64,000 nt of DNA from Bacteroidaceae bacterium (lineage in GTDB: Bacteria > Bacteroidota > Bacteroidia > Bacteroidales > Muribaculaceae): NCBI GenBank assembly GCA_963612465.1, contig CAVDUV010000006.1:36732-100731 (forward strand), written 5' to 3'. The notes beneath the pieces are model-generated. The model was not told where the DNA came from. It was given only the letters and a program-made list of their open reading frames with translations, and did no database searches. Of the stretch, positions 3,446-36,271 are shown piece after piece. Position 1 is the first letter of the stretch. Each line of letters starts with the position of its first letter. The translations under genes were made by a program, and so were the position numbers.

Positions 3446-4615
3446 ATGCCTTTGGCCAAGTGGTTGCCGCTTCTTGGCTTGACGTGTGCCGCTTTTGTGT
3501 TCAATACCTCGGAATTTGTCCCCATTGGCTTGCTGACCGACATTGCCGCCGACTTCTCCCTTACCGAAGCCCGTGCGGGCCTGCTGATATCGGTTTATGC
3601 CTGGGTGGTGATGCTGCTGTCGCTGCCGCTGATGATACTCGCCTCGCGCTTCGACTTGCGCCGGCTCATGCTGTGGATGGTGGGACTCTTTTCGGTGTTT
3701 CAGGTGTGCTCGTTTCTATCGGTAAGTTATGGCACACTGATGCTGTCGCGCATCGGGGTTGCCTGCACCCACTCGGTGTTTTGGTCGATAGTCTCGCCCA
3801 TGGCGGTGCGCATGGTGCCGCAGCGTTATCGCCAGTTGGCCTTAAGTCTGATTGTGACTGGCACGTCGGTGGCAATGATTTTCGGCCTGCCGCTTGGGCG
3901 TGTTGTGGGATTGCTTGTGGGGTGGCGCATGACCTTTTTGGGCGTGGGCATTGTGGGCGCTGTCACGTTTGTGTATCTGCTTGTCACCCTCCCGTCGCTG
4001 CCCAGTGTCGACCGTTTCAGGTTTGGCCAGTTTCCTGCATTGCTGCGCAACCGCACCCTGGTGGGTATATGGCTGTTCTCGTTTGTGCTGGCTACTGCCT
4101 ACTACACAGGCTACAGCTACATAGAGCCGTTTCTTGGGCAAGTGGCCCACTTCAGCAGCGGCATGGTTACTGCAGTGCTGATGATGTTTGGCGGTGCGGG
4201 CATCTTTGGCAGCATGGCTTTCTCGAAATTCTATGTGCGCTACCGCTGCGGCTTTGTGAGCATTGCTACACTGGCAATGGCTGCCGCGCTATTTATGTTG
4301 TGGCCGCTGGCATGCTCTGTGGTTGCGGTGGTGGCACTGTGCGCCATGTGGGGCGCAAGCGCCACGGCATTTAATGTGGCCATGCAGTCGGAGGTGATCA
4401 ATGTGTCGACGGCCGAATCCACATCGGTGGCTATGTCGGTATTTTCGGGCATTTTCAATCTGGGTATAGGATTGGGCGCATTGGCCGGTGGGGCAGTGTG
4501 CACGCTGCTGTCGATTTCGTGGATAGGCATTGCCGGCGGTGTGATTGCCGTGGTGGCTTGGGGGTTCTGGCAGTGCGACTTGTCGCGGCGCTTGCGGTTG
4601 CTGCACAAGCGCTGA
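3446..4615 (+). CDS. MFS transporter (sugar-efflux-like)
   Basis: About 12 hydrophobic helices. N-terminus MPLAKWLPLLGLTCAAFVFNTSEFVPIGLL resembles SotB/YdeA-type MFS. Alternative in-frame starts at 3416 and 3344. Confidence 0.8.
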   Translation: MPLAKWLPLLGLTCAAFVFNTSEFVPIGLLTDIAADFSLTEARAGLLISVYAWVVMLLSLPLMILASRFDLRRLMLWMVGLFSVFQVCSFLSVSYGTLMLSRIGVACTHSVFWSIVSPMAVRMVPQRYRQLALSLIVTGTSVAMIFGLPLGRVVGLLVGWRMTFLGVGIVGAVTFVYLLVTLPSLPSVDRFRFGQFPALLRNRTLVGIWLFSFVLATAYYTGYSYIEPFLGQVAHFSSGMVTAVLMMFGGAGIFGSMAFSKFYVRYRCGFVSIATLAMAAALFMLWPLACSVVAVVALCAMWGASATAFNVAMQSEVINVSTAESTSVAMSVFSGIFNLGIGLGALAGGAVCTLLSISWIGIAGGVIAVVAWGFWQCDLSRRLRLLHKR

Positions 4616-6738: not shown

Positions 6739-8208
6739 CTATTTATGCTCAAGCGGGCAATTCACTAAATACAGGTGCTTGCGGGCACGGGTCATTGCCG
6801 TGTAGAGCCATCGCATGAAGTCGAGTGAACTTAGCGCGTCGGGCATAATCGAGCCCATGTCGACAAACACGTTTTGCCACTGGCCGCCTTGGGCTTTGTG
6901 GCAGGTTACGGCATAGGCAAACTTCACTTGCAGGGCATTGAAATAAGGATTGGCCTTGAGGGCGCGGTAACGGCTGCGTTTGTCCCCGGTCATTTCGGCC
7001 ATCAGCTCGTTGTACAGGCGGTCGCTTTGCTCGCGGGTGAGTGCAGGGGTGTCGCTGAACAGGCTATCGAGAATCACCTTGGCGTCGACCTCAATGCCGC
7101 CGTGGTCGGGAAACTCAAGTGTGACTTGGGCAAACCGCAGGCCATAGCGTAGCTCCACCTCGCCCCACACCCGCTGCACACGAGCCACGTCGCCATTGGC
7201 GATGAAGTCGATTTCTTTGTAGTCGGCAGCCCAGTGGTAGTTGTTTTTTGTCACTAGCAGCATGTCGCCGTGGGTGAGTTCCTCGTCGCGAAACAGAATT
7301 TGGTTGCGTATGGCCCCGTTGAACAGTTTGGCTCTGCGGTTGCTGCGCGTGATTATTATGGTGTCGTCTTGCCCGCAACTGTCGTAGCTGTCGCTGATTT
7401 TTTCGAGCAGGTACTCGCCGGTCACGGTTTCCACGTCGTCAAATTGCTGCAATTCTATAACCGGCGGCACCGTCTCGGCCGTGGTGAGCATGCGTCTCAC
7501 GGTGGTTGCGTTATACAGGATGCCGCTTTGTGCCGCTTGCCGGGCAATTTGTGTCAGCCAGATGTCGTATACGCTGAGGCCGTAACCACTCAGCACTTGG
7601 GCTTTCAGTGCCGGACTGTCGGTCTGGCCCACCGGCGGCAACTGGGCCGAGTCGCCCATCAGCACCAAGCGGCAGTTGCTTTGCCCGTTGGCGTAGACGT
7701 ATCCCACCAGGTCGTCAAGCAGTCGTCCTGTTCCGAATGCGGAACCGTCAAGTCCTGGCGAGTTAGATATCATCGATGCTTCGTCGACGATAAACAAAGT
7801 GTCGGTGTGCTTGTTGTCGGCAAGGGAAAAAGCTTGGTCGAGGTAGCTGTTTTGGCGGTAGATTTTGCGGTGAATGGTGAAGGCCGTGTGGCCTGAATAG
7901 TCGCTGAACACTTGTGCTGCGCGTCCCGTTGGTGCCAGCAGCACAGATTTCGAGCCGCGCCGGGTGAGGGCTTTCACAATCGCGCCTGTGAGGCTCGTTT
8001 TTCCGGTACCGGCATAACCGTTGAGCAAAAACACGGCTTTGGGACCGCCGTATAGCATGAAGTGTGCAAATGCGGCAATCATGGTCACTTGGTCGTTGTT
8101 GGGCTCATATGGAAGGAGGTCCATCACGTCGAGGGCAAAGTCGCGGATGGCTTTGTCGTCGCGCCCGATTGCGCTTGGGGTGGCATTATGGCTCGAATTT
8201 TCTTCCAT
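6739..8208 (-). CDS. RecD/PIF1-like ATP-dependent DNA helicase (AAA_30 / UvrD_C_2 type)
   Basis: Walker A GYAGTGKTS, Walker B/motif II FIVDEASMIS, LMGDSAQLPPV, C-terminal AVTCHKAQGGQW. Confidence 0.85.
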   Translation of the reverse strand: MEENSSHNATPSAIGRDDKAIRDFALDVMDLLPYEPNNDQVTMIAAFAHFMLYGGPKAVFLLNGYAGTGKTSLTGAIVKALTRRGSKSVLLAPTGRAAQVFSDYSGHTAFTIHRKIYRQNSYLDQAFSLADNKHTDTLFIVDEASMISNSPGLDGSAFGTGRLLDDLVGYVYANGQSNCRLVLMGDSAQLPPVGQTDSPALKAQVLSGYGLSVYDIWLTQIARQAAQSGILYNATTVRRMLTTAETVPPVIELQQFDDVETVTGEYLLEKISDSYDSCGQDDTIIITRSNRRAKLFNGAIRNQILFRDEELTHGDMLLVTKNNYHWAADYKEIDFIANGDVARVQRVWGEVELRYGLRFAQVTLEFPDHGGIEVDAKVILDSLFSDTPALTREQSDRLYNELMAEMTGDKRSRYRALKANPYFNALQVKFAYAVTCHKAQGGQWQNVFVDMGSIMPDALSSLDFMRWLYTAMTRARKHLYLVNCPLEHK

Positions 8209-20911: not shown

Positions 20912-20937
20912 GGCTCAAGGGCTGAACGTATAAAATT

Positions 20938-20974
20938 AAAGGCTGGCCGTGCGCGGATGCGCGGGCCAGCCTTT
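20938..20974. terminator. GC-rich hairpin (bidirectional terminator), left copy
   Basis: aaaggctggcc-gtgcgcggatgcgcg-ggccagccttt. Lies 27 nt after the DUF805 stop. Confidence 0.7.
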
Positions 20975-20996
20975 ACTGTGGGGTTGTGGTAACGGG

Positions 20997-21062
20997 TTAG
21001 TGGTCGTAGTGGGCGAGGGCGCGGCGCAGGTTGTCGGCCAGCTGCACGCGCATCTCTTTGGG
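20997..21062 (-). pseudogene. orphan 3' fragment (last 21 codons plus stop) of the WYL-regulator gene
   Basis: The reverse complement reads PKEMRVQLADNLRRALAHYDH-TAA. The intact gene ends PKEMRVQLADNLRRALALYDH-TGA at 26228. No upstream coding continuation. Confidence 0.85.
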
Positions 21063-21502
21063 GGATCGTGAAGTGACATGCGGCTACGTAATCGCTATTG
21101 CACTGGTACAACATTTTTGTTGTGTGTGACAAGGATAAATGTAAAAATATAGTTATATTTGCCGTGCACTTATATTCGAAAGGATAGAGGTGCTACATAT
21201 TAATACGGACGTTACTTAAGCGTTACCTCTACATTCAAAACTCGCAATTTTGTAAAAAACTTCGGAGGTGAAGTCGTAGCAGCGTCCACGTTTTGCGCAT
21301 ATGTCGCCAGCCCATACTTTCCGCTATGGAAGGTATGGGTCTTGGTGCTTGCATATTGGGCGTGGGCTGACTGGGTTACTTATTCTGAAGTTTGGGCATG
21401 CGAGGCCTTGAATGTGGAATAAGACAAGTACAGATTCCTACGCCCTTTTTGTGTTATGTTCAGCTATGGGGAATTCAGTTGGACGCCATAAAAACGTATG
21501 CT

Positions 21503-21730
21503 ATGATATTCATAGGCCCTATTATAAAGGCCGAGCTAGATCGCCAGGAGCGCAGCGTCAGTTGGTTTGCTCGCAAGATAGGTTGTGATCGCTCCACAGT
21601 GTATCGCATATTTCAAAGAGCCAGCATCGATACACAGTTGTTGATGCGCATCTCTACCGTACTTGACCATGACTTCTTTGCTGATATATCGCAGAGCATA
21701 CACCATGTACCATATTCAGATTCTCGCTGA
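21503..21730 (+). CDS. small helix-turn-helix DNA-binding protein (75 aa)
   Basis: ORF 21392..21730. In-frame ATG at 21503. HTH-like SVSWFARKIGCDRSTVYRIFQRASIDTQLL. Confidence 0.6.
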   Translation: MIFIGPIIKAELDRQERSVSWFARKIGCDRSTVYRIFQRASIDTQLLMRISTVLDHDFFADISQSIHHVPYSDSR

Positions 21731-21764
21731 TTGCGGCACAAGTGTGGCAATTGTGCAGCACAGA

Positions 21765-21799
21765 TTTCTTTTACGTAACTGCTATTGCCAATATCTTTG
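21765..21799 (+). promoter_or_regulatory. candidate Bacteroides-type promoter for the peptide/radical SAM operon
   Basis: TATCTTTG (21792-21799) fits the -7 consensus TAnnTTTG. A T-rich tttctttt lies at about -33. Motif match only. Confidence 0.3.
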
Positions 21800-21860
21800 C
21801 GTTGTTAAAGAAAAATCCGAATCGCTTGAAAGGACGTAGGAAGTAAACTTTAACAAAAAT

Positions 21861-21897
21861 GAGAAAGCCGAAATGCAAGAAAGAGAGTAGGCAAAAA
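21861..21897 (+). repeat. 37-bp perfect direct repeat, copy A (leader upstream of the 23-aa ORF)
   Basis: gagaaagccgaaatgcaagaaagagagtaggcaaaaa is identical to 22000..22036. Ends 18 nt before the ATG at 21916. Confidence 0.95.
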
Positions 21898-21915
21898 AAT
21901 TAATACTAAGATGAA

Positions 21916-21987
21916 ATGATAGTAGGAATTGGATCAATGCTGGGGATTATGTTGATTGGATATTTAGCCTTTAAAATTTTCCATTGA
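21916..21987 (+). CDS. 23-aa hydrophobic peptide MIVGIGSMLGIMLIGYLAFKIFH (putative small membrane peptide)
   Basis: Hand-translated; below the length shown in the ORF track. Sits at the same spacing from the 37-bp repeat as the 49-aa ORF. No Cys. Confidence 0.35.
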   Translation: MIVGIGSMLGIMLIGYLAFKIFH

Positions 21988-21999
21988 CAAACCAATACA

Positions 22000-22036
22000 G
22001 AGAAAGCCGAAATGCAAGAAAGAGAGTAGGCAAAAA
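22000..22036 (+). repeat. 37-bp perfect direct repeat, copy B (leader upstream of the 49-aa ORF)
   Basis: Identical to 21861..21897. Ends 18 nt before the ATG at 22055. Confidence 0.95.
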
Positions 22037-22054
22037 TTTTTAATTAGAACCAAA

Positions 22055-22204
22055 ATGAAAAAGTATCAGAAACCCAAAGTCGTGGCAAAAAATCTTCCGT
22101 CTGGTTCATATGCAGCTGGTTGTCCAGCGAACCGTTCCGGAGAGACTTGTTTTATGTTCAATGTGCAAGGACCCACATGCAAATATTGTGAACGCTCGAA
22201 ATAA
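22055..22204 (+). CDS. 49-aa Cys-containing putative RiPP precursor MKKYQKPKVVAKNLPSGSYAAGCPANRSGETCFMFNVQGPTCKYCERSK
   Basis: Hand-translated; below the length shown in the ORF track. Lys-rich leader-like N-terminus, 4 Cys in the C-terminal 27 aa. Lies immediately upstream of two RRE-rSAM-SPASM genes. Confidence 0.6.
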   Translation: MKKYQKPKVVAKNLPSGSYAAGCPANRSGETCFMFNVQGPTCKYCERSK

Positions 22205-22222
22205 AGGCAACGAAATTATTTT

Positions 22223-22258
22223 AATTCAAGGGGAGGATTCCCCTTGAATTTTATTCTT
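22223..22258 (+). terminator. 12-bp perfect hairpin plus T-rich tail between peptide gene and radical SAM genes (possible attenuator)
   Basis: aattcaagggga-ggat-tccccttgaatt followed by ttattctt. Lies 19 nt after the peptide stop and 9 nt before the rSAM start. Confidence 0.6.
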
Positions 22259-22266
22259 ATCATGTG

Positions 22267-23736
22267 ATGTATATTCAGCTATCAAAAAATTCCTTTATAA
22301 GGTGTACCCCAAATTATGGGTATATTACAAATCAATTAACTAGGCAAGATAGGGTATATAACGAATCTGGAGCAAGTTTTCTTAAAAAAATAGCACGTAA
22401 GCCGTTGAAGCTGGAAAATATAGTGGGGCAACTTTGTGATGAATATCCAGATGAACTCAAAGAAACCATTGAAAAAGACTTTGTCTCTTTTATAGAAGAT
22501 TTGGCAAATCATGGATTTGTAATACTGGGGGATAGTATTGATGACCTTGCAAAAAAAGAACAGGAATTTTCTTATTCAATAGACGCTCCGTTCACAATGA
22601 CGGAAGACTTTACACAGCAGACCCAAGAAAGGGTTAGCGAAAACACACAAGATTTTTTCCTCGAGGAAGTGCAAAAACGTCCAATGATTTCTGCATTGCA
22701 GTTTGAGCTGTCAAGTAGGTGTAATGAGAGGTGTATACATTGTTACATACCGAACGACAAGAAAAATAAAGGATTTGACATGCCTACGCAAGAAGTGAAA
22801 AGAGTGCTGGATGAATTTTCAGATATGGGTGGACTTTATGTTACATTGTCTGGTGGAGAAGCCTTTTTACACAATGATATCCTTGAAATAATTGAGTATT
22901 GTAGAAAGAAGGATTTTAGGGTTACAATATTGTCCAATTTAATTTCTGTAAAAGAAGAACATGTACAGGCATTGAAAAAGATGAATGTCTCTCTCATCCA
23001 GACCTCCCTATATTCTATGAATCCAGAAATCCATGATTATATAACTACTGTTAAGGGATCGTTTGAGAGAACTAAGTCGTCTATAGAAAAATTGGTGAAA
23101 TCCGATATTCCAGTCCAGATAAGTTGTCCTGTTATGAAAGCCAATAAAGATAGTATTCGCGATGTTTTACTATATGCCAGGTCTTTAAAGATAAAGGCTC
23201 AAACCGATTATATTATGATGGCACGCTCAGATCTGGATACATCTAATTTGGCTAATAGATTGTCCTTGGAAGAGACAGAGAAAGTAATCCAAGACATACT
23301 ACAATTTGATGCTGATTACATTGACAATACGCTTATGCAGAAACCTCTTTCTGATGAAGTGAAATTTAACATGGACAGATTTAAGTCTCAACCAGTTTGC
23401 GGTGTGGGCTATGATAATTGCTGTATAACTGCAAATGGAGACGTTTATCCGTGTGCAGGATGGCAGGACTATGTGATAGGTAATGTGTATCGTCAGCCCC
23501 TAAAGGAAATTTGGGAAGGTAGTAAAAAAGTGCAGGCACTACGTAAAATCACTCAAGCATCCTTTCCTTCATGTCTTAATTGTGAAGCACTTAACTATTG
23601 TAATCGATGCCTTGTTAGAAATTACAACGAAACGAATGGAAATATGTTTGAAATCCCAAAACGTTTTTGTGACATAGCTTTCTTGAACAAAAAGCTGACA
23701 GAAAAATTTGAACACGATTATATATACAAAAAATAG
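22267..23736 (+). CDS. radical SAM/SPASM peptide-modifying enzyme with N-terminal PqqD-like (RRE) domain, paralog 1
   Basis: CNERCIHCY (CxxxCxxC), SGGEAFL. C-terminal Cys cluster CGVGYDNCCITANGDVYPCAGW ... CLNCEALNYCNRC. N-terminal roughly 90 aa resemble PqqD. GTG at 22264 is an alternative start. Confidence 0.85.
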   Translation: MYIQLSKNSFIRCTPNYGYITNQLTRQDRVYNESGASFLKKIARKPLKLENIVGQLCDEYPDELKETIEKDFVSFIEDLANHGFVILGDSIDDLAKKEQEFSYSIDAPFTMTEDFTQQTQERVSENTQDFFLEEVQKRPMISALQFELSSRCNERCIHCYIPNDKKNKGFDMPTQEVKRVLDEFSDMGGLYVTLSGGEAFLHNDILEIIEYCRKKDFRVTILSNLISVKEEHVQALKKMNVSLIQTSLYSMNPEIHDYITTVKGSFERTKSSIEKLVKSDIPVQISCPVMKANKDSIRDVLLYARSLKIKAQTDYIMMARSDLDTSNLANRLSLEETEKVIQDILQFDADYIDNTLMQKPLSDEVKFNMDRFKSQPVCGVGYDNCCITANGDVYPCAGWQDYVIGNVYRQPLKEIWEGSKKVQALRKITQASFPSCLNCEALNYCNRCLVRNYNETNGNMFEIPKRFCDIAFLNKKLTEKFEHDYIYKK

Positions 23737-23742
23737 TTCCGC

Positions 23743-25083
23743 GTGTTTGTTAAAAGATTAGACTCGACAATAGTGAGAGCACTGAAAGATGGTTCTGCTC
23801 TTGCGTTTAATGTTGAAACGGGTGAACATATCGTCTTAGATGAAGTAGGAGGTGCTTTTATTAGTAAGGTGTTGACCAAAGCGCAGGATGTGGATAATAT
23901 ATGTTTATCGCTTATGTCAATGTACTATGGTGTCTCGCTATCTGAATTAAGGACTGATTTTATTGGATTTATTACGGAATTAGGGGACAAGGGAATTTTA
24001 AAGATTTCGGAAAAACCTGAGAATGAGCATGAACTTACTGATATACAGATAGAAATTATAACTGGTTGCAATGAGCGCTGCGTGCACTGTTACATACCAA
24101 ATGCGGAAAAAAACAAGTGTGTGTTGATGCCTAACAAAATGGTGCACTCAATTATTGACCAATTCAAAGTGTTAGGCGGCAAGAGCATAACATTGTCAGG
24201 AGGAGAACCGCTACTTCATCCAGACTTGTGCGATATGATAAATTATTGTGCATTAAACAATTTGCGAATTAACATTTTCACAAACCTAACTCTACTTGAC
24301 GATAAAATAACATCGGCATTATTAGACTCGAATATTGGCGTAGTTCAAACTTCACTATATTCAATGAATCCAAATGTGCATGATGATATAACAAAAGTCC
24401 CAGGTTCATTTGCAAAGACTTTGCATGGAATAGAGAAATTAAAAGAAAATGGGATTGAAGTGCAAATTGCGTGTCCAGTGATGAGTAAAAATAAGGAAGG
24501 TCTAAGTGAATTGGTCGATTTTGCTGTTGGCAATGGCATTAATTTAAGGCTAAACTCTCAGTTAATGGCTCAAAATAATGGCGATGATACTTTTGTCAAA
24601 GGCAATAGGCTCTCATTGATACAAAACAAGGAACTATTATGTGAATTGATGACCAATCATGCAGAATATGTAATACACCATTTATTTGAGTTGTCTGATT
24701 TGGATGCAGCATTGATTGATAACCCCAAAAAAACCTGTGAAAGTTCGATTTGTTCTGCAGGGAAAAATTCATGCAGCATATTGGTAAATGGCAATGTAAT
24801 TCCTTGCCCAAGTTGGGTGGAATGTGTGTTGGGGAATGTTTTTGTCTCATCATTAAGTGATATTTGGAATGGAAGTGCTCTCTTAAAGCATTTACGCCAT
24901 TTCAATAAACAAAAGTTTTATCCCGAATGTTTAGAGTGCAAGGCTTTATCGTTTTGCAAAAGATGTTTCGCTCAGAATGCATCCGGGAATAGTAAATGTT
25001 TCCTTGATATTGATGGGAGAGTGTGTGACGAGGCTTTTTTAAGGAAGGAGTTTTTTGATCGATACGCAAATGGAAATGGCTGA
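23743..25083 (+). CDS. radical SAM/SPASM peptide-modifying enzyme with N-terminal PqqD-like (RRE) domain, paralog 2
   Basis: GTG start 6 nt after the paralog 1 stop. CNERCVHCY, SGGEPLL. SPASM-like CSAGKNSCSILVNGNVIPCPSW ... CLECKALSFCKRC. Clearly homologous to paralog 1 along its length. Confidence 0.85.
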   Translation: MFVKRLDSTIVRALKDGSALAFNVETGEHIVLDEVGGAFISKVLTKAQDVDNICLSLMSMYYGVSLSELRTDFIGFITELGDKGILKISEKPENEHELTDIQIEIITGCNERCVHCYIPNAEKNKCVLMPNKMVHSIIDQFKVLGGKSITLSGGEPLLHPDLCDMINYCALNNLRINIFTNLTLLDDKITSALLDSNIGVVQTSLYSMNPNVHDDITKVPGSFAKTLHGIEKLKENGIEVQIACPVMSKNKEGLSELVDFAVGNGINLRLNSQLMAQNNGDDTFVKGNRLSLIQNKELLCELMTNHAEYVIHHLFELSDLDAALIDNPKKTCESSICSAGKNSCSILVNGNVIPCPSWVECVLGNVFVSSLSDIWNGSALLKHLRHFNKQKFYPECLECKALSFCKRCFAQNASGNSKCFLDIDGRVCDEAFLRKEFFDRYANGNG

Positions 25084-25396
25084 TGAATATGTTTCAATGA
25101 TAGTAGCAGGATCTTTTACTGTTTTAGGGGCTATGGTTAGCTCAATATCACATTGGTTAACGTCACGAAACAGTACAAGAACGCATAAGTTGGAAAAATA
25201 TGTCATGCAATTAGGAGATCAAGTTAAATCTTATTGGTACTTGGAGCGGTTATATGCTCACGAGCTATCTGAATTAAAAAAATGTAACGAGGAAACAACA
25301 TTGAAAAGGAACCGAGCTAAAATAGCAGATCAAGTGGGTGTTCGGCCCAAAATGACAGCTAATGATGTAGATAAACTTTTGGATGATATTCGGTGA
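25070..25396 (+). CDS. small protein with one N-terminal TM helix and charged helical tail
   Basis: ORF 25055..25396. ATGs at 25070 and 25076 overlap the rSAM-2 stop. Helix MIVAGSFTVLGAMVSSISHWL. No family recognised. Confidence 0.55.
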   Translation: MEMADEYVSMIVAGSFTVLGAMVSSISHWLTSRNSTRTHKLEKYVMQLGDQVKSYWYLERLYAHELSELKKCNEETTLKRNRAKIADQVGVRPKMTANDVDKLLDDIR

Positions 25397-26148
25397 TGAT
25401 TGTTGATAGCCACGTACATGTAGGACAATTCAATGATAAATATTTTTCCCCTGCGTTTGTATCAAGGCTGATGTCAAGCGTAGGGGTTGACTATTATGCA
25501 GTGTCGTCTACCACAATGTGTAATGAGGATTACCCAAAGGTGTTGTCTGAAATAAATGAATTGATTGGTCTTGATGGTGAACGAGTGTTGCCTGTTATTT
25601 GGATTACGCCATATGGACTTAAGGGTAGCATTGCATGGTTTCTTGAGTCGGATGTTAGGTGGCGCTGCTTGAAGGTTCATCCATTTCTACACCCCAATGA
25701 CTGGGAACCGAATGGCTCACAGTTTTGCGACGTGATAGACATTGCTCGTGAACTGCATGTGCCATTGTTAATACACACAGGGCATGATAAAAGTTGCATG
25801 TGTGGCAAATATGAGGAAATGATTGCTGAAAATGTTGATGTTGATTTCATCTTGGCTCATGGTCAACCATTGAAGCAGGTGATACCTATATTAGCTCGTT
25901 ATATGAATGCTTATGCAGATTCTGCTTTTATGCCTATTGGGCAAATGAGAGAGATCATTGACAATGACTTAGCACATAAACTTTTGTGGGGGACAGATAT
26001 GTGTGTGCCGTTACATTTTTATTCCCATATAGATCTTGCTCAGTGTTATGGCAAAAAACTGAAAGACTTTCGCGCGGTTTGCTCACAAGAGCAATATGTG
26101 TCAGTGACAAGTATTAATGCAAGAAAATTGTTTGGCATTTCATTGTGA
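25396..26148 (+). CDS. amidohydrolase-2 type metal-dependent TIM-barrel hydrolase
   Basis: N-terminal DSHVHV (HxH), LLIHTGH, ILAHG, WGTDMCVP. The ATG overlaps the previous stop (TGATG). Confidence 0.7.
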   Translation: MIVDSHVHVGQFNDKYFSPAFVSRLMSSVGVDYYAVSSTTMCNEDYPKVLSEINELIGLDGERVLPVIWITPYGLKGSIAWFLESDVRWRCLKVHPFLHPNDWEPNGSQFCDVIDIARELHVPLLIHTGHDKSCMCGKYEEMIAENVDVDFILAHGQPLKQVIPILARYMNAYADSAFMPIGQMREIIDNDLAHKLLWGTDMCVPLHFYSHIDLAQCYGKKLKDFRAVCSQEQYVSVTSINARKLFGISL

Positions 26149-26167
26149 TGGTTGAAGACATTAAAAA

Positions 26168-26293
26168 TAAAGGCTGGCCGTGCGCGGATGCGCGGGCCAG
26201 CCTTTATTGTGGGGTTGTGGTAACGGGTCAGTGGTCGTAGAGGGCGAGGGCGCGGCGCAGGTTGTCGGCCAGCTGCACGCGCATCTCTTTGGG
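26168..26293. repeat. 126-bp direct repeat, right copy (island boundary; part of the intact WYL gene 3' end)
   Basis: Matches 20937..21062 with 3 mismatches. Confidence 0.95.
26169..26205. terminator. GC-rich hairpin (bidirectional terminator), right copy
   Basis: Same hairpin as 20938..20974. Lies 20 nt after the amidohydrolase stop and 22 nt after the WYL gene stop. Confidence 0.7.
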
Positions 26294-29917: not shown

Positions 29918-30114
29918 AATTTATGAAAATAGTACGTAAATACGTGGTTTTTAGGTTGCTGTTGAATTACGCGACAATTGCGTGCTGCATTGCCTGAGAA
30001 GGTGGCTTTAGGCGATGCTGAATGCAAAGTTAGTAAAAATGCGCTACTGTTAAAATAATTGTGGGCAAAAATGTAGCACACCCTTCACGGTGTGGGGCCA
30101 AAGTGCAAAGTCAC

Positions 30115-30155
30115 AAAAAAGATTCATGCCAACGCTTTTACGGGTTGGCATGAAT
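30115..30155 (-). terminator. rho-independent terminator after serpin copy 1
   Basis: attcatgccaac / gttggcatgaat is a 12-bp stem. A T6 run follows on the minus strand. Confidence 0.75.
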
Positions 30156-30193
30156 TACTTGTATGGCACAAATGTGCTATTGAAAAAGCGGTG

Positions 30194-31444
30194 TTATTTC
30201 GAGAATTGCTTGATGCTTATTGTTTTACCCATAAACAGGATGGCGCCGCTATTGCACTCGCGGATTATGTAGATGAATGGGCTGTCGACAATGAAACAGT
30301 TAGGGGCGACAGCGGTGTAGTCATCGGTTGCTCCTGAGGCTACTTTAATTTGGGTTCCGTGTTCGTCCACATCGATGGATGCAGATTGCTTGACAACGCC
30401 CAAAGCCGATTTCGTTGTTGAGAATTTTCCGAAATCAGCATTTTGTGATAATGCTTGATTAATGCCCATGGCAGTAAGAATATGCTGAAGGTCGTAATTG
30501 AATTCTCCTTTGAATTTGGGAAGCCCTATTTTATATGGGCCATTGCCGGGGTTCTTGGCGGCATTGTCGAGCATGTAGTAGAAATCATCCAAAGTCATTT
30601 CGGTTATGTATTTGTTGATGTCAATGCTCCGGTTGGGCAACAGGATGTCCATCTCGAAGGAGCCTTTGTAAGGAATTTTAAGCAGGCTCACGAAGTCGCT
30701 GTCGGCGTAGTGCTCAAGCATAAGGTCTTGGAACATCATGGGCACTTTTTCGCTTATGTTCTTGTAGTTGTGGAAGATGTCATCGCAGGTGTTTTTTTCG
30801 TCAAACGGGTTTGCCCACCACCCATCAAAAGTTGTTGCGTTTACGACACAAAAGCCCGCATTTGCTGGAATTCCTTCAAAAAGAGATGGTATTTTGCCGC
30901 TAGTGGCATCGCTGACCCATTTGTTCACAATGCCAACGGCCTCGTTGCTGTAAAAATCTGCTCCCTTGAAACTTGTGCCATAATTGCTGGTGCAGTTCTT
31001 TACAAACTCGTCGAGAACGCTATAGCGGTTGTTGTATACGAAGAAGTTTGAAGTCGTGAATTTTGTGTTGGGCACGCATTTTGGCAGGTCTTCGCGCAGG
31101 TGTTTATAGTAACTGTTCACCTCATTGATGTCGTAGCTGATGCCAAGCGCTTTCACTATTTCGTTGTAAGTGTTGCCCTGTGCTCCGTTTGCCAGCATTG
31201 CCAGCACTTGTGCCATGCTGTAGGGCGAGATGAATGTGTTGTCATTCTCGTGCGCATTGTTGAGTGTCTTGAAGAGGTTGAAGGCAAAGTCGTTGGCTTC
31301 GGTAGTTATTTTTTGCTCGGTGGCCGATAGTTGTATCTTTTGATATCCGTTTTCTTGAGGCTCATCGCCTGTGTGATTGCAGGCAGTGGCTACTAGCAAT
31401 GTGGTTGCCGCAATAACGGTGTGCTTGAAATTAAAATGTCTCAT
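30194..31444 (-). CDS. serpin family lipoprotein, copy 1
   Basis: Lipobox LLVATAC. Serpin signatures FISPYSMAQVLAMLANGAQGNT and hinge/RCL region DEHGTQIKVASGATDDYTAVAPNCFIVDSPFIYIIRE. Aligns to the alpha-1-antitrypsin C-terminus by eye. Confidence 0.85.
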   Translation of the reverse strand: MRHFNFKHTVIAATTLLVATACNHTGDEPQENGYQKIQLSATEQKITTEANDFAFNLFKTLNNAHENDNTFISPYSMAQVLAMLANGAQGNTYNEIVKALGISYDINEVNSYYKHLREDLPKCVPNTKFTTSNFFVYNNRYSVLDEFVKNCTSNYGTSFKGADFYSNEAVGIVNKWVSDATSGKIPSLFEGIPANAGFCVVNATTFDGWWANPFDEKNTCDDIFHNYKNISEKVPMMFQDLMLEHYADSDFVSLLKIPYKGSFEMDILLPNRSIDINKYITEMTLDDFYYMLDNAAKNPGNGPYKIGLPKFKGEFNYDLQHILTAMGINQALSQNADFGKFSTTKSALGVVKQSASIDVDEHGTQIKVASGATDDYTAVAPNCFIVDSPFIYIIRECNSGAILFMGKTISIKQFSK

Positions 31445-31467
31445 AATCAGTTGATTTTAAAAGTTTG

Positions 31468-32919
31468 TTAGTTCGTTGATTTGAATCCGTATAATAAATA
31501 TCTGATTTTTTCGACTGAGGTGGTGTTGTCTTTTGATAAAGTGACACCCCAGGTGGGCTCGTATGTGCACTCTACAGCGTCATAGGCGCCTGCGAAGTCG
31601 GAGCCTCCGGCATGGTAGGAGTAAGCCAAATAATATGTGTTGTTATAGCTTTGCCCCCATCCCCAATTCATCCGCAGGTAGGTGTATTTGATTCCGTCAC
31701 GCTCGATTTGCATTTCGGTGTCGCCTGATGCTGATTGCATGAACATCCATGATGGGTATCGGTTGTATTCCTCCTCGGTGATTCGGTGTGACTCGTCCCA
31801 CTCATAGTTTATGACCATCTTGTCCTCGTTGGTTCGCGCACCGTCAATGATGAATGTGTGCCCGCCGTCGGAAGCTCCATTGTTGTCAACCATCTTTCCG
31901 GCGACATAGACTGGGCATCCCGACCTTAAGTTGGACATTACCGTGGTAAAGTTGTAGTTGTCGCTCTTGCTGAATGACAACTTGTAAGGACTGAACGCTT
32001 TGGATTCCTTGTCTCCTGTTGTGGAACCTGCATCCCAAGTGTATGTTGTTCCCAAAATTGAGCCTAGGTAGGCGATGAACATGGCCTGGGTGTTGCTGGA
32101 TGAGAAAATTGAGCTCCATCCGTCGGTTGAAAATCCAGTGACGCCGAACCAGTTGTCATTAATTGTGGGCATGTGTGCTGCCGAAGGCAGTGTGGTGCCC
32201 AAATTGTTGCCGGCCCGATAGTGTGCTATGATTTGGCCGCAAGCCACAGGAATGCAACCGGCTGGACAATGCCGCCAAGATCCAGCAGAATCTTGCCGCA
32301 TAACAGTGTAGTTGTTGTAAGGACTGTTTTGATTCCAACTGGTTTTAATAATGTGTGGGATTTCGTCGGTGTTGCTTACATATGCCGAATCGGTGGCAAT
32401 CCACATTCCGTCGCCATATGCTGAGCGCCTTTTTGCTTTGCTGGCACCTTTTTCAAGGCCTTGCCGATTGGTGTCAATCAGCGCCCAAACAGGGTCTCTG
32501 TGCGTCTCTCCGCTTGCTCTCATTGCGGCTACGCGGTCAATAAGACCTTGAATGCTCTGGATGGCAGGATTCTCGACATCGAGCAGATTAAGCACGCCCT
32601 CGTCGGAGAAAGCGAGTACAGGCGGCATGCGTTGGTCGCCCGATATCAGTTTCCACCCTTTGTCGAGGTTTACACAATAGGCCAGGGTGTCACCGCCTTC
32701 ACAGATAGGTATAATACTCCTTACCCTGGCACTCTTGTGGGCTGTGTTTAGGAACTTGCTGAGCATCTGGCGAGTCACGCCATAGTTGATTGTGGATGCG
32801 TCTGCGCTGGTTTGTGCGCTTGTCACATCGGGCGAGCTCTCGAAAATGTCAGCCTCGTTGCAGCCGGTCAGCAATAGCCCGGCGGCAATAAGGTTTAGTA
32901 GTGAAAATGTTACTCTCAT
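31468..32919 (-). CDS. C10 (streptopain-like) cysteine protease lipoprotein with N-terminal propeptide/inhibitor-like domain, copy 1
   Basis: Lipobox LLLTGC. WNQNSPYNNY, candidate catalytic Cys in PAGCIPVACGQIIAHY, His in GGHTFIIDG, NWGWG. Confidence 0.85.
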   Translation of the reverse strand: MRVTFSLLNLIAAGLLLTGCNEADIFESSPDVTSAQTSADASTINYGVTRQMLSKFLNTAHKSARVRSIIPICEGGDTLAYCVNLDKGWKLISGDQRMPPVLAFSDEGVLNLLDVENPAIQSIQGLIDRVAAMRASGETHRDPVWALIDTNRQGLEKGASKAKRRSAYGDGMWIATDSAYVSNTDEIPHIIKTSWNQNSPYNNYTVMRQDSAGSWRHCPAGCIPVACGQIIAHYRAGNNLGTTLPSAAHMPTINDNWFGVTGFSTDGWSSIFSSSNTQAMFIAYLGSILGTTYTWDAGSTTGDKESKAFSPYKLSFSKSDNYNFTTVMSNLRSGCPVYVAGKMVDNNGASDGGHTFIIDGARTNEDKMVINYEWDESHRITEEEYNRYPSWMFMQSASGDTEMQIERDGIKYTYLRMNWGWGQSYNNTYYLAYSYHAGGSDFAGAYDAVECTYEPTWGVTLSKDNTTSVEKIRYLLYGFKSTN

Positions 32920-33098
32920 AATATTAATGTGCTGTTACGCTTGGTTTTTCTGCGACTATAATAAAATCGTGTGCGGCAAATATATTAATTGTTTGTCAAA
33001 CACCACCCCAAAAATGTAAAATATTTTAATACACATTGCATTTTTTAAAAAGTGTTTTAAAAAGCACACCCCTGCGTAGAGACAAAGTGCAAAGTCAC

Positions 33099-33138
33099 AA
33101 AAAAATTCATGCCAACGCTTTTACGGGTTGGCATGAAT
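33099..33138 (-). terminator. rho-independent terminator after serpin copy 2
   Basis: Same hairpin as copy 1, followed by T7 on the minus strand. Confidence 0.75.
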
Positions 33139-33176
33139 TACTTGTATGGCACTAATGTGCTATTGAAAAAGCGGTG

Positions 33177-34427
33177 TTATTTCGAAAATTGCTTGATGCT
33201 TATTGTTTTACCCATAAACAGGATGGCGCCGCTATTGCACTCGCGGATTATGTAGATGAATGGGCTGTCGACAATGAAACAGTTAGGGGCGACAGCGGTG
33301 TAGTCATCGGTTGCTCCTGAGGCTACTTTAATTTGGGTTCCGTGTTCGTCCACATCGATGGATGCAGATTGCTTGACAACGCCCAAAGCCGATTTCGTTG
33401 TTGAGAATTTTCCGAAATCAGCATTTTGTGATAATGCTTGATTAATGCCCATGGCAGTAAGAATATGCTGAAGGTCGTAATTGAATTCTCCTTTGAATTT
33501 GGGAAGCCCTATTTTATATGGGCCATTGCCGGGGTTCTTGGCGGCATTGTCGAGCATGTAGTAGAAATCATCCAAAGTCATTTCGGTTATGTATTTGTTG
33601 ATGTCAATGCTCCGGTTGGGCAACAGGATGTCCATCTCGAAGGAGCCTTTGTAAGGAATTTTAAGCAGGCTCACGAAGTCGCTGTCGGCGTAGTGCTCAA
33701 GCATAAGGTCTTGGAACATCATGGGCACTTTTTCGCTTATGTTCTTGTAGTTGTGGAAGATGTCATCGCAGGTGTTTTTTTCGTCAAACGGGTTTGCCCA
33801 CCACCCATCAAAAGTTGTTGCGTTTACGACACAAAAGCCCGCATTTGCTGGAATTCCTTCAAAAAGAGATGGTATTTTGCCGCTAGTGGCATCGCTGACC
33901 CATTTGTTCACAATGCCAACGGCCTCGTTGCTGTAAAAATCTGCTCCCTTGAAACTTGTGCCATAATTGCTGGTGCAGTTCTTTACAAACTCGTCGAGAA
34001 CGCTATAGCGGTTGTTGTATACGAAGAAGTTTGAAGTCGTGAATTTTGTGTTGGGCACGCATTTTGGCAGGTCTTCGCGCAGGTGTTTATAGTAACTGTT
34101 CACCTCATTGATGTCGTAGCTGATGCCAAGCGCTTTCACTATTTCGTTGTAAGTGTTGCCCTGTGCTCCGTTTGCCAGCATTGCCAGCACTTGTGCCATG
34201 CTGTAGGGCGAGATGAATGTGTTGTCATTCTCGTGCGCATTGTTGAGTGTCTTGAAGAGGTTGAAGGCAAAGTCGTTGGCTTCGGTAGTTATTTTTTGCT
34301 CGGTGGCCGATAGTTGTATCTTTTGATATCCGTTTTCTTGAGGCTCATCGCCTGTGTGATTGCAGGCAGTGGCTACTAGCAATGTGGTTGCCGCAATAAC
34401 GGTGTGCTTGAAATTAAAATGTCTCAT
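33177..34427 (-). CDS. serpin family lipoprotein, copy 2
   Basis: The 416-aa translation is identical to 30194..31444. Confidence 0.85.
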   Translation of the reverse strand: MRHFNFKHTVIAATTLLVATACNHTGDEPQENGYQKIQLSATEQKITTEANDFAFNLFKTLNNAHENDNTFISPYSMAQVLAMLANGAQGNTYNEIVKALGISYDINEVNSYYKHLREDLPKCVPNTKFTTSNFFVYNNRYSVLDEFVKNCTSNYGTSFKGADFYSNEAVGIVNKWVSDATSGKIPSLFEGIPANAGFCVVNATTFDGWWANPFDEKNTCDDIFHNYKNISEKVPMMFQDLMLEHYADSDFVSLLKIPYKGSFEMDILLPNRSIDINKYITEMTLDDFYYMLDNAAKNPGNGPYKIGLPKFKGEFNYDLQHILTAMGINQALSQNADFGKFSTTKSALGVVKQSASIDVDEHGTQIKVASGATDDYTAVAPNCFIVDSPFIYIIRECNSGAILFMGKTISIKQFSK

Positions 34428-34450
34428 AATCAGTTGATTTTAAAAGTTTG

Positions 34451-35902
34451 TTAGTTCGTTGATTTGAATCCGTATAATAAATATCTGATTTTTTCGACTG
34501 AGGTGGTGTTGTCTTTTGATAAAGTGACACCCCAGGTGGGCTCGTATGTGCACTCTACAGCGTCATAGGCGCCTGCGAAGTCGGAGCCTCCGGCATGGTA
34601 GGAGTAAGCCAAATAATATGTGTTGTTATAGCTTTGCCCCCATCCCCAATTCATCCGCAGGTAGGTGTATTTGATTCCGTCACGCTCGATTTGCATTTCG
34701 GTGTCGCCTGATGCTGATTGCATGAACATCCATGATGGGTATCGGTTGTATTCCTCCTCGGTGATTCGGTGTGACTCGTCCCACTCATAGTTTATGACCA
34801 TCTTGTCCTCGTTGGTTCGCGCACCGTCAATGATGAATGTGTGCCCGCCGTCGGAAGCTCCATTGTTGTCAACCATCTTTCCGGCGACATAGACTGGGCA
34901 TCCCGACCTTAAGTTGGACATTACCGTGGTAAAGTTGTAGTTGTCGCTCTTGCTGAATGACAACTTGTAAGGACTGAACGCTTTGGATTCCTTGTCTCCT
35001 GTTGTGGAACCTGCATCCCAAGTGTATGTTGTTCCCAAAATTGAGCCTAGGTAGGCGATGAACATGGCCTGGGTGTTGCTGGATGAGAAAATTGAGCTCC
35101 ATCCGTCGGTTGAAAATCCAGTGACGCCGAACCAGTTGTCATTAATTGTGGGCATGTGTGCTGCCGAAGGCAGTGTGGTGCCCAAATTGTTGCCGGCCCG
35201 ATAGTGTGCTATGATTTGGCCGCAAGCCACAGGAATGCAACCGGCTGGACAATGCCGCCAAGATCCAGCAGAATCTTGCCGCATAACAGTGTAGTTGTTG
35301 TAAGGACTGTTTTGATTCCAACTGGTTTTAATAATGTGTGGGATTTCGTCGGTGTTGCTTACATATGCCGAATCGGTGGCAATCCACATTCCGTCGCCAT
35401 ATGCTGAGCGCCTTTTTGCTTTGCTGGCACCTTTTTCAAGGCCTTGCCGATTGGTGTCAATCAGCGCCCAAACAGGGTCTCTGTGCGTCTCTCCGCTTGC
35501 TCTCATTGCGGCTACGCGGTCAATAAGACCTTGAATGCTCTGGATGGCAGGATTCTCGACATCGAGCAGATTAAGCACGCCCTCGTCGGAGAAAGCGAGT
35601 ACAGGCGGCATGCGTTGGTCGCCCGATATCAGTTTCCACCCTTTGTCGAGGTTTACACAATAGGCCAGGGTGTCACCGCCTTCACAGATAGGTATAATAC
35701 TCCTTACCCTGGCACTCTTGTGGGCTGTGTTTAGGAACTTGCTGAGCATCTGGCGAGTCACGCCATAGTTGATTGTGGATGCGTCTGCGCTGGTTTGTGC
35801 GCTTGTCACATCGGGCGAGCTCTCGAAAATGTCAGCCTCGTTGCAGCCGGTCAGCAATAGCCCGGCGGCAATAAGGTTTAGTAGTGAAAATGTTACTCTC
35901 AT
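34451..35902 (-). CDS. C10 (streptopain-like) cysteine protease lipoprotein, copy 2
   Basis: The 483-aa translation is identical to 31468..32919. Confidence 0.85.
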   Translation of the reverse strand: MRVTFSLLNLIAAGLLLTGCNEADIFESSPDVTSAQTSADASTINYGVTRQMLSKFLNTAHKSARVRSIIPICEGGDTLAYCVNLDKGWKLISGDQRMPPVLAFSDEGVLNLLDVENPAIQSIQGLIDRVAAMRASGETHRDPVWALIDTNRQGLEKGASKAKRRSAYGDGMWIATDSAYVSNTDEIPHIIKTSWNQNSPYNNYTVMRQDSAGSWRHCPAGCIPVACGQIIAHYRAGNNLGTTLPSAAHMPTINDNWFGVTGFSTDGWSSIFSSSNTQAMFIAYLGSILGTTYTWDAGSTTGDKESKAFSPYKLSFSKSDNYNFTTVMSNLRSGCPVYVAGKMVDNNGASDGGHTFIIDGARTNEDKMVINYEWDESHRITEEEYNRYPSWMFMQSASGDTEMQIERDGIKYTYLRMNWGWGQSYNNTYYLAYSYHAGGSDFAGAYDAVECTYEPTWGVTLSKDNTTSVEKIRYLLYGFKSTN

Positions 35903-36271
35903 AATATTAATGTGCTGTTACGCTTGGTTTTTCTACGACCATAATAAAATCGTGTGCGGCAAATATATTAATTGTTTGTCAAACGCCACCCAAAAAATGT
36001 AAAATATTTTAATACACATTGCATTTTTTTCAAAAAAGCATAATATGTTGATAGTCTGAACAGCTAGCGATAGAGTAAAAATAGAATGAAGGGTGGTCTT
36101 TTTGCTTGTTCAAATAATGTGGATTCGTCGTATTTTTTTGAATGGAAACTTATTCTTTTTGCCAAGTTTGTGGTAATTTTGCAATGCGCTGAGGTGTTTT
36201 GAAAATAGAATACGGCCATTGGCCATAAACCATTCAGCGAATAACAACCACTAAAAACACAGTTAATCATC

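Follow-up and report, generated by a model that had tools for sequence, protein, structure and literature searches.

A Probable Family of Radical SAM-Modified Precursor Peptides Encoded with an Amidohydrolase in Gut and Rumen Bacteroidales

A 49-codon open reading frame (ORF) located at positions 22055–22204 of the forward strand of a 64,000-nucleotide stretch of Muribaculaceae DNA (assembly GCA_963612465.1, contig CAVDUV010000006.1, positions 36,732 to 100,731; this whole stretch is referred to as the window) is a real gene, and its product is probably the precursor of an apparently undescribed family of RiPPs (peptides made on ribosomes and modified after translation), matured by a cassette of radical S-adenosylmethionine (rSAM) and Amidohydro_2 enzymes. 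The conserved unit of this system, found in Bacteroidales and Treponema, comprises the precursor, one enzyme that combines a PqqD-like RiPP recognition element (RRE), a radical SAM domain and a SPASM domain, and one hydrolase of the Amidohydro_2 group. The original prediction, made from the DNA letters without database searches, had regarded the ORF as a candidate precursor tied to the adjacent rSAM maturases; this is upheld by the presence in the peptide of all 14 residues that are invariant in its family, by the occurrence of an ortholog of the core enzyme in 71 of 80 loci and by a substitution pattern typical of protein-coding sequence.

The coordinates and translation of the ORF (MKKYQKPKVVAKNLPSGSYAAGCPANRSGETCFMFNVQGPTCKYCERSK; ATG start, four Cys residues) match exactly those first proposed, and the expectation that gene callers could overlook it was borne out: three NCBI assemblies with an identical copy of the surrounding genomic island annotate nothing between the first maturase gene and DUF805, and their gene calls also omit a small helix-turn-helix (HTH) gene, a mini-ORF and orf113 (described below). 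Since callers routinely miss the precursor, clusters of this type look like orphan radical SAM genes. The exact peptide is absent from a collection of 5.8 billion protein clusters (best match 73% identical), has no NCBIfam or Pfam match at E <= 0.01 and none in PADLOC, and is left unmatched by the hidden Markov models of known rSAM-target precursors (SCIFF TIGR03973, ACGX-repeat, GG_sam_targ_CFB, and others).

Relatives of the peptide were collected by a protein search, a pattern scan of 185,579 species genomes and a profile search of 1.84 billion representatives. The first retrieved 72 clusters of 36–86 aa (E-values to 1.8e-14) with no Pfam domain and generic 'hypothetical protein' names, the second a relative encoded in 116 of the species genomes, and the third 182 clusters at 50% identity. 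Two long proteins matched by the profile (P0239, 1972 aa; P0314, 1512 aa) were rejected as false positives, the matches being due to repeated 'EGSYANGYP' / 'AAGSYTVEA' strings. The carriers are mainly gut and rumen Bacteroidales (Muribaculaceae, Prevotellaceae, Paludibacteraceae, and others), with a sister group in Treponema and a few matches in metagenome-assembled genomes (MAGs) binned as Clostridia. Some MAG labels on cassette contigs are implausible: locus L001 (CAVKDU010000016.1) is assigned to Wujia chipingensis and has flanks of 60% GC despite this Lachnospiraceae name, and L005 and L025 are assigned to Staphylococcus. Binning errors are the probable cause of these labels, and any seeming spread to Firmicutes calls for caution.

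The family signature has three parts, namely an N-terminus of the form Y-x-K-P/A-x-h-h-A-K-N-x3-G-S-Y-A-A-G-C-P, a hypervariable loop between G-C and C-x-x-C (5–40 residues, median 14, enriched in Gly, Pro, Ser, Ala, and Asn among 251 distinct complete peptides) and a C-terminal C-x-x-C-E-R-[TAS]-x element, in which the tail after C-x-x-C counts exactly four residues in 243 of these 251 members. The window peptide carries the 14 invariant residues M1, K6, A11, K12, N13, G17, S18, Y19, A20, A21, G22, C23, C42, and C45; its variable loop corresponds to residues 24–41 and its fixed tail after Cys45 reads E-R-S-K. In the alignment P24, A25, and E46 are conserved in at least 90% of members in addition to the invariant columns. 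More distant members have F in place of Y19 and D, F or Q in place of E46, so that the features strictly required are an aromatic residue at position 19, the pair G22-C23, C42, and C45. One or two additional Cys residues occur in the loop of 84 of the 251 members (about one third), and in the window peptide this accessory Cys is Cys32.

Selection on the translated product is shown by the nucleotide entropy at codon positions 1, 2, and 3 (0.63, 0.33, and 1.40, respectively, over 19 aligned N-terminal codons of 82 genes), most of the variation falling on third positions, and by the use of all synonymous codons, both Ser codon families included, for the invariant residues of the same genes. Three loci (L018, L038, and L047) each encode two precursors with different loops. 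At positions 7748–7920 of L073, a leader element followed by a degenerate precursor-like ORF (MKTYKKATVITGKIITKTYAASNGPLFELPCYSGPHK) lies just upstream of the intact precursor, and this ORF may be a decayed paralog.

The genes that accompany the peptide were identified by tblastn of the window proteins against 80 fetched loci and by unsupervised clustering of all neighboring ORFs, and both procedures agree that only two protein families are conserved with it: the orthologs of the first maturase (71/80 loci) and the Amidohydro_2 protein (64/80 loci), the loci devoid of one or the other being mostly short or truncated contigs. The identity of the first maturase is 53–66% in nearly all Bacteroidales loci, 88% in L001, and 41–44% in Treponema, which keeps the cassette. 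Transporters, proteases, and kinases were considered as further cassette members and rejected, as none is conserved; Ser/Thr kinases are frequent neighbors but do not occur in the window. In the window, two radical SAM/SPASM genes lie downstream of the ORF on the same strand. The first encodes the core maturase (22264–23736, forward strand, probable ATG at 22267), with a PqqD-like RRE, a radical SAM domain (C153-x3-C-x2-C) and a SPASM domain (C437-x2-C-x5-C-x2-C), and the second an accessory maturase of the same RRE-radical SAM-SPASM architecture (23743–25083, forward strand), about 31–35% identical to the core enzyme. They are followed on this strand by orf113 (25055–25396), a gene of uncertain status and role, shared only with L001 and L037, whose 113-aa product contains one hydrophobic helix and matches no family, and by the gene for the Amidohydro_2 TIM-barrel metal hydrolase (25393–26148; invariant residues D5, H7, H9, K94, H96, H128, H156, and D202). 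A small HTH protein, a candidate regulator, is encoded upstream of the precursor (21503–21730, forward strand) in the window and in L001, L008, L013, L022, and L043, and occurs elsewhere in a few more loci.

Both maturases have the architecture of peptide-modifying enzymes. The CX3CX2C motif is intact in each (C153NERCIHC in the first, C109NERCVHC in the second), as are the CX2CX5CX2C SPASM motif and upstream Cys, and the three domains score above their cut-offs in the first and second enzyme, respectively (radical SAM PF04055, 96.6 and 87.1 bits, cut-off 29.5; SPASM PF13186, 50.5 and 46.5 bits, cut-off 21.5; PqqD-like RRE PF05402, 32.3 and 25.2 bits, cut-off 23.4). The nearest solved relatives of the first maturase in a sequence search of the PDB are SkfB (4e-14), PqqE (5e-9), SuiB (6e-9), and CteB (1e-7), all of them rSAM/SPASM enzymes that modify peptides. 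The models of characterized equivalogs (AlbA, SkfB, StsB, PapB, ScmE/F, MftC, PqqE, WgkB, and others) give at best 63–141 bits against cut-offs of 265–850, that is, scores 2- to 8-fold under every NCBIfam equivalog cut-off, so the specific reaction is not transferable from a known enzyme.

The Amidohydro_2 protein (PF04909, 36.9 bits, cut-off 26.4) retains the metal-ligand set H7, H9, H128, H156, and D202, which is invariant in the family, and its AlphaFold model has a predicted local distance difference test (pLDDT) score of 96.7. A sequence search of the PDB gave no match, and a fold search retrieved only the generic Amidohydro_2 neighborhood (LigY, LigJ, LigI-like lactonases, ACMSD, IDCase decarboxylases, and two uncharacterized TIM barrels; template modeling scores of 0.66–0.73 at 10–17% identity). 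A competent metal enzyme within the Amidohydro_2 group, it could be a hydrolase, a decarboxylase or a hydratase alike.

The two maturases differ in distribution. In a neighbor-joining tree the orthologs of the first form one clade, and the extra rSAM/SPASM genes branch deeply outside it. A second such gene is present in 10 of the 80 loci, and these ten are spread over about four separate lineages of the core-enzyme tree; a loop Cys occurs in all ten as against 11 of the 61 single-enzyme loci (Fisher p = 7.6e-7, not corrected for phylogeny). The rule was then tested prospectively on metagenome contigs picked by peptide sequence alone. The four peptides with a loop Cys (P0002, P0008, P0014, and P0016) adjoin two rSAM/SPASM genes and an Amidohydro_2 gene in every case, and the three peptides that have no loop Cys (P0042, P0055, and P0037) adjoin one rSAM/SPASM gene and an Amidohydro_2 gene in every case; with these, the loop Cys is present in 14 of 14 two-enzyme loci. 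In such loci hydrophobic residues usually come next after this Cys (C-FMF, C-LMF, C-LLF, C-LFS, C-ALF, or C-PFF). The comparison supports, at the level of sequence, a division of labor in which the core enzyme is matched to the invariant Cys set, the accessory one to the loop Cys (Cys32 in the window). It had been supposed that the two maturases make two equivalent crosslinks, or that each serves one site; the maturases are not equivalent, the first being universal to the family as its core enzyme and the second a deep-branching paralog of a minority of loci, but the latter idea survives in a modified form, in that the accessory enzyme occurs only where the loop has an extra Cys. The possibility that the second maturase is a strain-polymorphic pseudogene was rejected, as the shorter gene calls in two assemblies go back to another choice of start and to N-runs of the scaffold, with no difference in the DNA.

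The following mechanism is proposed for the cassette. The precursor would be expressed as a compact unit, the leader pseudoknot lying about 20 nt ahead of its ATG and a terminator-like hairpin behind its stop codon. The PqqD-like RRE of the core maturase would dock on the N-terminal Y-x-K-P/A-x-h-h-A-K-N segment and the enzyme would make radical crosslinks, most likely thioethers, through Cys23, Cys42, and Cys45; the RRE-dependent rSAM/SPASM RiPP enzymes SkfB, CteB, PapB, and PqqE/PqqD provide the basis for both steps. The donors of the C-x-x-C, whose i, i+3 spacing is typical of nested sactipeptide hairpins, may link back to the constant G-S-Y-A-A-G-C segment and thereby close the variable loop. 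The accessory enzyme would most likely install one additional crosslink at Cys32, and the amidohydrolase may then trim, decarboxylate or hydrolyze the product, possibly guided by the fixed four-residue tail.

Several points weigh against this interpretation or restrict it. The 11 single-rSAM loci that also have a loop Cys indicate that this residue alone does not require an accessory enzyme; as Glu46 and Tyr19 vary in the wider family, neither can be an obligatory crosslink partner; thioether formation is suggested by analogy to enzymes of the SkfB/CteB/PapB type, and the reaction could instead be C-C or C-O crosslinking, or epimerization; and no protease or exporter is conserved near the cassette in the 80 loci, which is unusual for a secreted RiPP. 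A more ambitious form of the interpretation, which is possible but still doubtful, would describe the peptide as a scaffold of constant frame and variable loop, in which one rSAM enzyme staples the invariant N-terminal segment to the C-x-x-C segment and thereby displays the hypervariable loop of 5–40 residues, the Amidohydro_2 enzyme replaces the usual protease as the second universal step, and modular accessory rSAM enzymes are recruited whenever the loop gains a Cys. If this were true, a stapled-loop scaffold carried on small mobile islands that have no dedicated exporter would constitute a new RiPP class in the dominant phylum of gut and rumen, diversified by a logic similar to the one seen in conotoxin or antibody loops.

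An unlikely explanation is that the peptide serves as a scaffold for a cofactor or small molecule, in the manner of PQQ and mycofactocin, its termini being linked together and cut out with the aid of the amidohydrolase, and its middle being a disposable linker. The extreme invariance of both ends, the fixed length of the C-terminal tail, the linker-like composition and unconstrained length of the Gly/Pro/Ser/Ala/Asn-rich loop, the obligatory hydrolase partner in clusters with neither exporter nor protease, and the rank of the MftC and PqqE models among the better matches would all fit such a role. These two models, however, are matched far under their cut-offs (TIGR03962, 103–106 bits against 265; TIGR02109, 96.8 against 381), so that the maturases fail as mycofactocin- or PQQ-grade enzymes; no partner oxidoreductase is conserved nearby in the 80 loci; and the cassette is patchy and island-borne, whereas cofactor pathways are usually encoded by core genes. 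Moreover, single loci may hold several precursors with different loops, and there would be no point in an accessory enzyme linked to a loop residue if the loop were thrown away.

The neighborhood of some cassettes raises the possibility, improbable as well but compatible with the precursor interpretation, of an intracellular role in a defense or stress island, with the modified peptide as effector or signal instead of a secreted antimicrobial. Membrane-anchored Ser/Thr kinases (Pkinase) lie within 6 kb of the cassette in 26 of the 80 loci (L003, L017, L021, L041, L051, L093, and others), often beside an unannotated protein of about 190 aa; neighborhoods resembling defense islands (L014, 4933–4969; L087, 1067–3588 and 9628–10929; L059, L060, and L070) contain abiF RNA, SRA and AAA_14/DUF4143 proteins, the latter being ATPases, PDDEXK_4, and RelE/YafQ-like toxins, which in Treponema loci are encoded between precursor and maturase; and WYL and GIY-YIG proteins also occur as neighbors. 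The lack of a conserved exporter would agree with such a role. Yet none of these neighbors is conserved with the cassette and none lies inside the island of the window, variable islands hold competition genes too, and the similarity detected by PADLOC is generic and limited to the radical SAM core (pVip viperins, 53–65 bits), with the peptide, the amidohydrolase, and orf113 unmatched.

The explanation offered by the original prediction, that two copies of an N-x-x-G-x-T-C heptad form a functional repeat marking two equivalent crosslinks, made one per maturase or both by either, is very improbable. The two heptads are indeed present (NRSGETC, residues 26–32, and NVQGPTC, residues 36–42, separated by FMF) in a locus with two paralogous maturases, and a self-match of four positions in seven arises in just 0.39% of shuffles of the 24-residue core (residues 26–49), as against 9.7% of shuffles of the whole peptide. 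Among 150 relatives, however, a 4-of-7 self-match is found in one, a single N..G.TC in one, and two copies in none; the closest homolog, the 88% identical peptide of L001, already departs from the pattern (NSTGNIC ... NVHGPTC); and most loci hold a single maturase. Heptad 1 coincides at its start with a sequence weakly preferred throughout the family, C-P-A-[KN]-[DN]-R-G (251 distinct peptides), and heptad 2 has no counterpart in other family members. Nor are the two heptads equivalent, because heptad 1 ends in the accessory Cys32 and heptad 2 in Cys42, which opens C-x-x-C and is invariant. With about 150–250 family members, one chance duplication of this kind is expected. Shuffles and family conservation together rule out the heptad as a family signature, and its duplication is a lineage-specific coincidence. 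Cys23 and Cys45, which had been deemed 'extra', are invariant together with Cys42, and Cys32 occurs in about one third of members. Least credible is the view that the ORF encodes an unmodified Cys-containing helper of the rSAM enzymes with a metal-binding or redox function, for which the three invariant Cys and the C-x-x-C could speak, since a Gly/Pro-rich loop of 5–40 residues is ill-suited to a folded redox protein, the enzymes bear RRE peptide-recognition domains, loci can have two divergent copies, and no Pfam or NCBIfam family is matched.

The precursor gene is preceded by a structured leader that resembles the DUF805b RNA of Rfam (RF02914, a candidate cis-regulatory motif). In the window one copy (21993–22034, forward strand) ends about 20 nt before the precursor ATG, keeping the pseudoknot GCC...GGC with a degenerate stem P1, a second (21854–21895, forward strand) lies 20 nt upstream of a 23-aa hydrophobic ORF, and a third, more degenerate one is located at 21803–21846 on the same strand; the first two belong to a 44-nt direct repeat (21854–21897 and 21993–22036, 93% identical). 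These two copies share with RF02914 the conserved boxes GCCGAAA and AGAGUAGGCA, but not the annotated stem. Their P1 pairs are non-canonical, and their scores, 27.6 and 22.5 bits, fall short of the gathering threshold (35.6); the GCC/GGC pseudoknot is absent from the Rfam consensus line. The lower score belongs to the copy at 21993–22034, to which a covariance model built in this work (R2) gives 42.6 bits. At the orthologous position 10 of 10 tested loci pass the RF02914 gathering score (37.7–52.7 bits, 21–23 nt upstream of the precursor ATG). In 30 aligned instances the annotated stem and the 3-bp pseudoknot GCC/GGC (variants CCC/GGG, GUC/GAC, and AUC/GAU) are supported, with 92.6% of P1 and pseudoknot cells paired vs. 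13–44% in slid controls and a covariation score of 0.355 vs. 0.125 in shuffles, a value reached by none of 500 shuffles.

All 71 matches of the new model in 1.05 Mb are on the precursor strand, and some of them lie 14–20 nt before the ATG of unrelated small genes, from which it follows that the element is a general start-codon-proximal leader of Bacteroidales and is not RiPP-specific. Bacteroidales do not use Shine-Dalgarno sequences; the Treponema and Clostridia-binned loci have a plain AGGAGG in place of the leader. The element may act on translation or stability in Bacteroidales; a literature search on DUF805b function found nothing. In seven loci (L006, L019, L036, L040, L046, L050, and L079) the leader is replaced by another conserved element (cacattgtg..cggatgtg...gcgagtg.ccatagc.caa) 70 nt upstream of the ATG, which may be another structured RNA. 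Further upstream in the window, a Bacteroidetes-type -7 box (TATCTTTG, 21792–21799) is recognized by consensus match only (TAnnTTTG).

Downstream of the precursor, a 12-bp stem-loop with a U-rich tract (22223–22250, forward strand) resembling a terminator or attenuator separates it from the first maturase gene. Of 81 family genes, 84% have a stable hairpin behind the stop codon, compared with 29% of control windows (p = 4e-23), and the one in the window would be expected to yield an excess of precursor transcript. The 23-aa hydrophobic mini-ORF mentioned above (21916–21987, forward strand; MIVGIGSMLGIMLIGYLAFKIFH) is conserved in frame in L001 (MEGIGAMILLVLIGFIAFKIFN) with the same leader element in front; L001 has mini-ORFs of 22–24 aa at 3666–3740 and 3830–3898, each behind its own leader copy. 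Such mini-ORFs are restricted to the lineage of the window and L001 and could encode small membrane peptides with an immunity or toxin function. Their absence from the other two-rSAM loci led to the rejection of the 23-aa ORF as a general second substrate of the accessory enzyme.

The whole 5-kb cassette is a horizontally acquired low-GC island (21139–26148), bracketed by 132-nt direct repeats that are 97% identical (20931–21062 and 26162–26293) and duplicate the 3' end of a WYL gene with its terminator, the right copy consisting of the last 22 codons of this gene on the minus strand and its terminator hairpin. The cassette segment has about 36% GC vs. about 55% in the genome. The island aligns to positions 2940–8062 of L001 at 80–87% identity, the flanks being unrelated, and the GC contrast recurs in L001. 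No integrase is present, and in a search for empty sites the adjoining island was found in all four assemblies that have the flanking WYL gene. The island is identical in GCA_963601825.1 and GCA_963599845.1 and, apart from scaffold N-runs, in GCA_963614815.1, and over a stretch of about 12.8 kb the three assemblies are 99.8–99.9% identical to the window. Elsewhere in the window (about 30100–36000, minus strand) a gene pair encoding a Peptidase_C10 (streptopain-like) protein and a serpin is tandemly duplicated, and positions 30099–31000 match L081 (1–4934) twice, at 99.9% and 98.6%.

Most RiPP production by Bacteroidales, the leading Gram-negative order in gut and rumen, has yet to be characterized (PMC10352776). 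No curated model or paper describing the present family was found in curated libraries and the open-access literature, and one may exist in a subscription journal; the string SYAAGC is in no paper among open-access texts, and a Bacteroidales RiPP mining paper and a review of radical SAM RiPPs of the human microbiome deal with other clusters. The family, present in more than 100 species genomes and about 180 sequence clusters, is now defined by a peptide signature and a minimal three-gene cassette, and offers a testable rule that pairs a loop Cys with an accessory radical SAM enzyme. With its obligatory Amidohydro_2 partner and neither protease nor exporter, the cassette points to biosynthetic steps unseen in characterized sacti- and ranthipeptides. 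In addition, the orphan Rfam motif DUF805b is tied to a start-codon-proximal position before small Bacteroidales genes, which may bear on translation control.

Among known systems, the closest resemblance is to sacti- and ranthipeptide clusters (SkfA/SkfB, subtilosin AlbA, CteA/CteB, PapA/PapB, and SCIFF/Tte1186), in which a short Cys-containing precursor is likewise encoded beside an enzyme with a PqqD-like RRE, a CX3CX2C motif and a SPASM domain. What sets the present family apart is a conserved/variable/conserved peptide plan with three Cys that are invariant, an Amidohydro_2 partner that is obligatory, no dedicated protease or ABC exporter, and a modular accessory maturase. Like the mycofactocin (MftA/B/C/E) and PQQ (PqqA/D/E) pathways, it combines a small peptide bearing invariant residues with an rSAM/SPASM enzyme that depends on an RRE and a follow-up hydrolase, and lacks an exporter, but the peptide has neither the C-terminal G-V-Y of MftA nor the E-x3-Y of PqqA, its middle is hypervariable and sometimes contains an extra Cys, and the cassette is island-borne and patchy. 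Clusters with two paralogous radical SAM/SPASM enzymes are also represented by those of ruminococcin C (RumMC1/MC2) and thuricin CD (TrnC/TrnD), whose paired enzymes serve two precursors or work in synergy on every site (PMC8188230; PMC12093266). The family described here, by contrast, can do without its second enzyme, which most loci lack and which goes along with one extra Cys in the variable loop.

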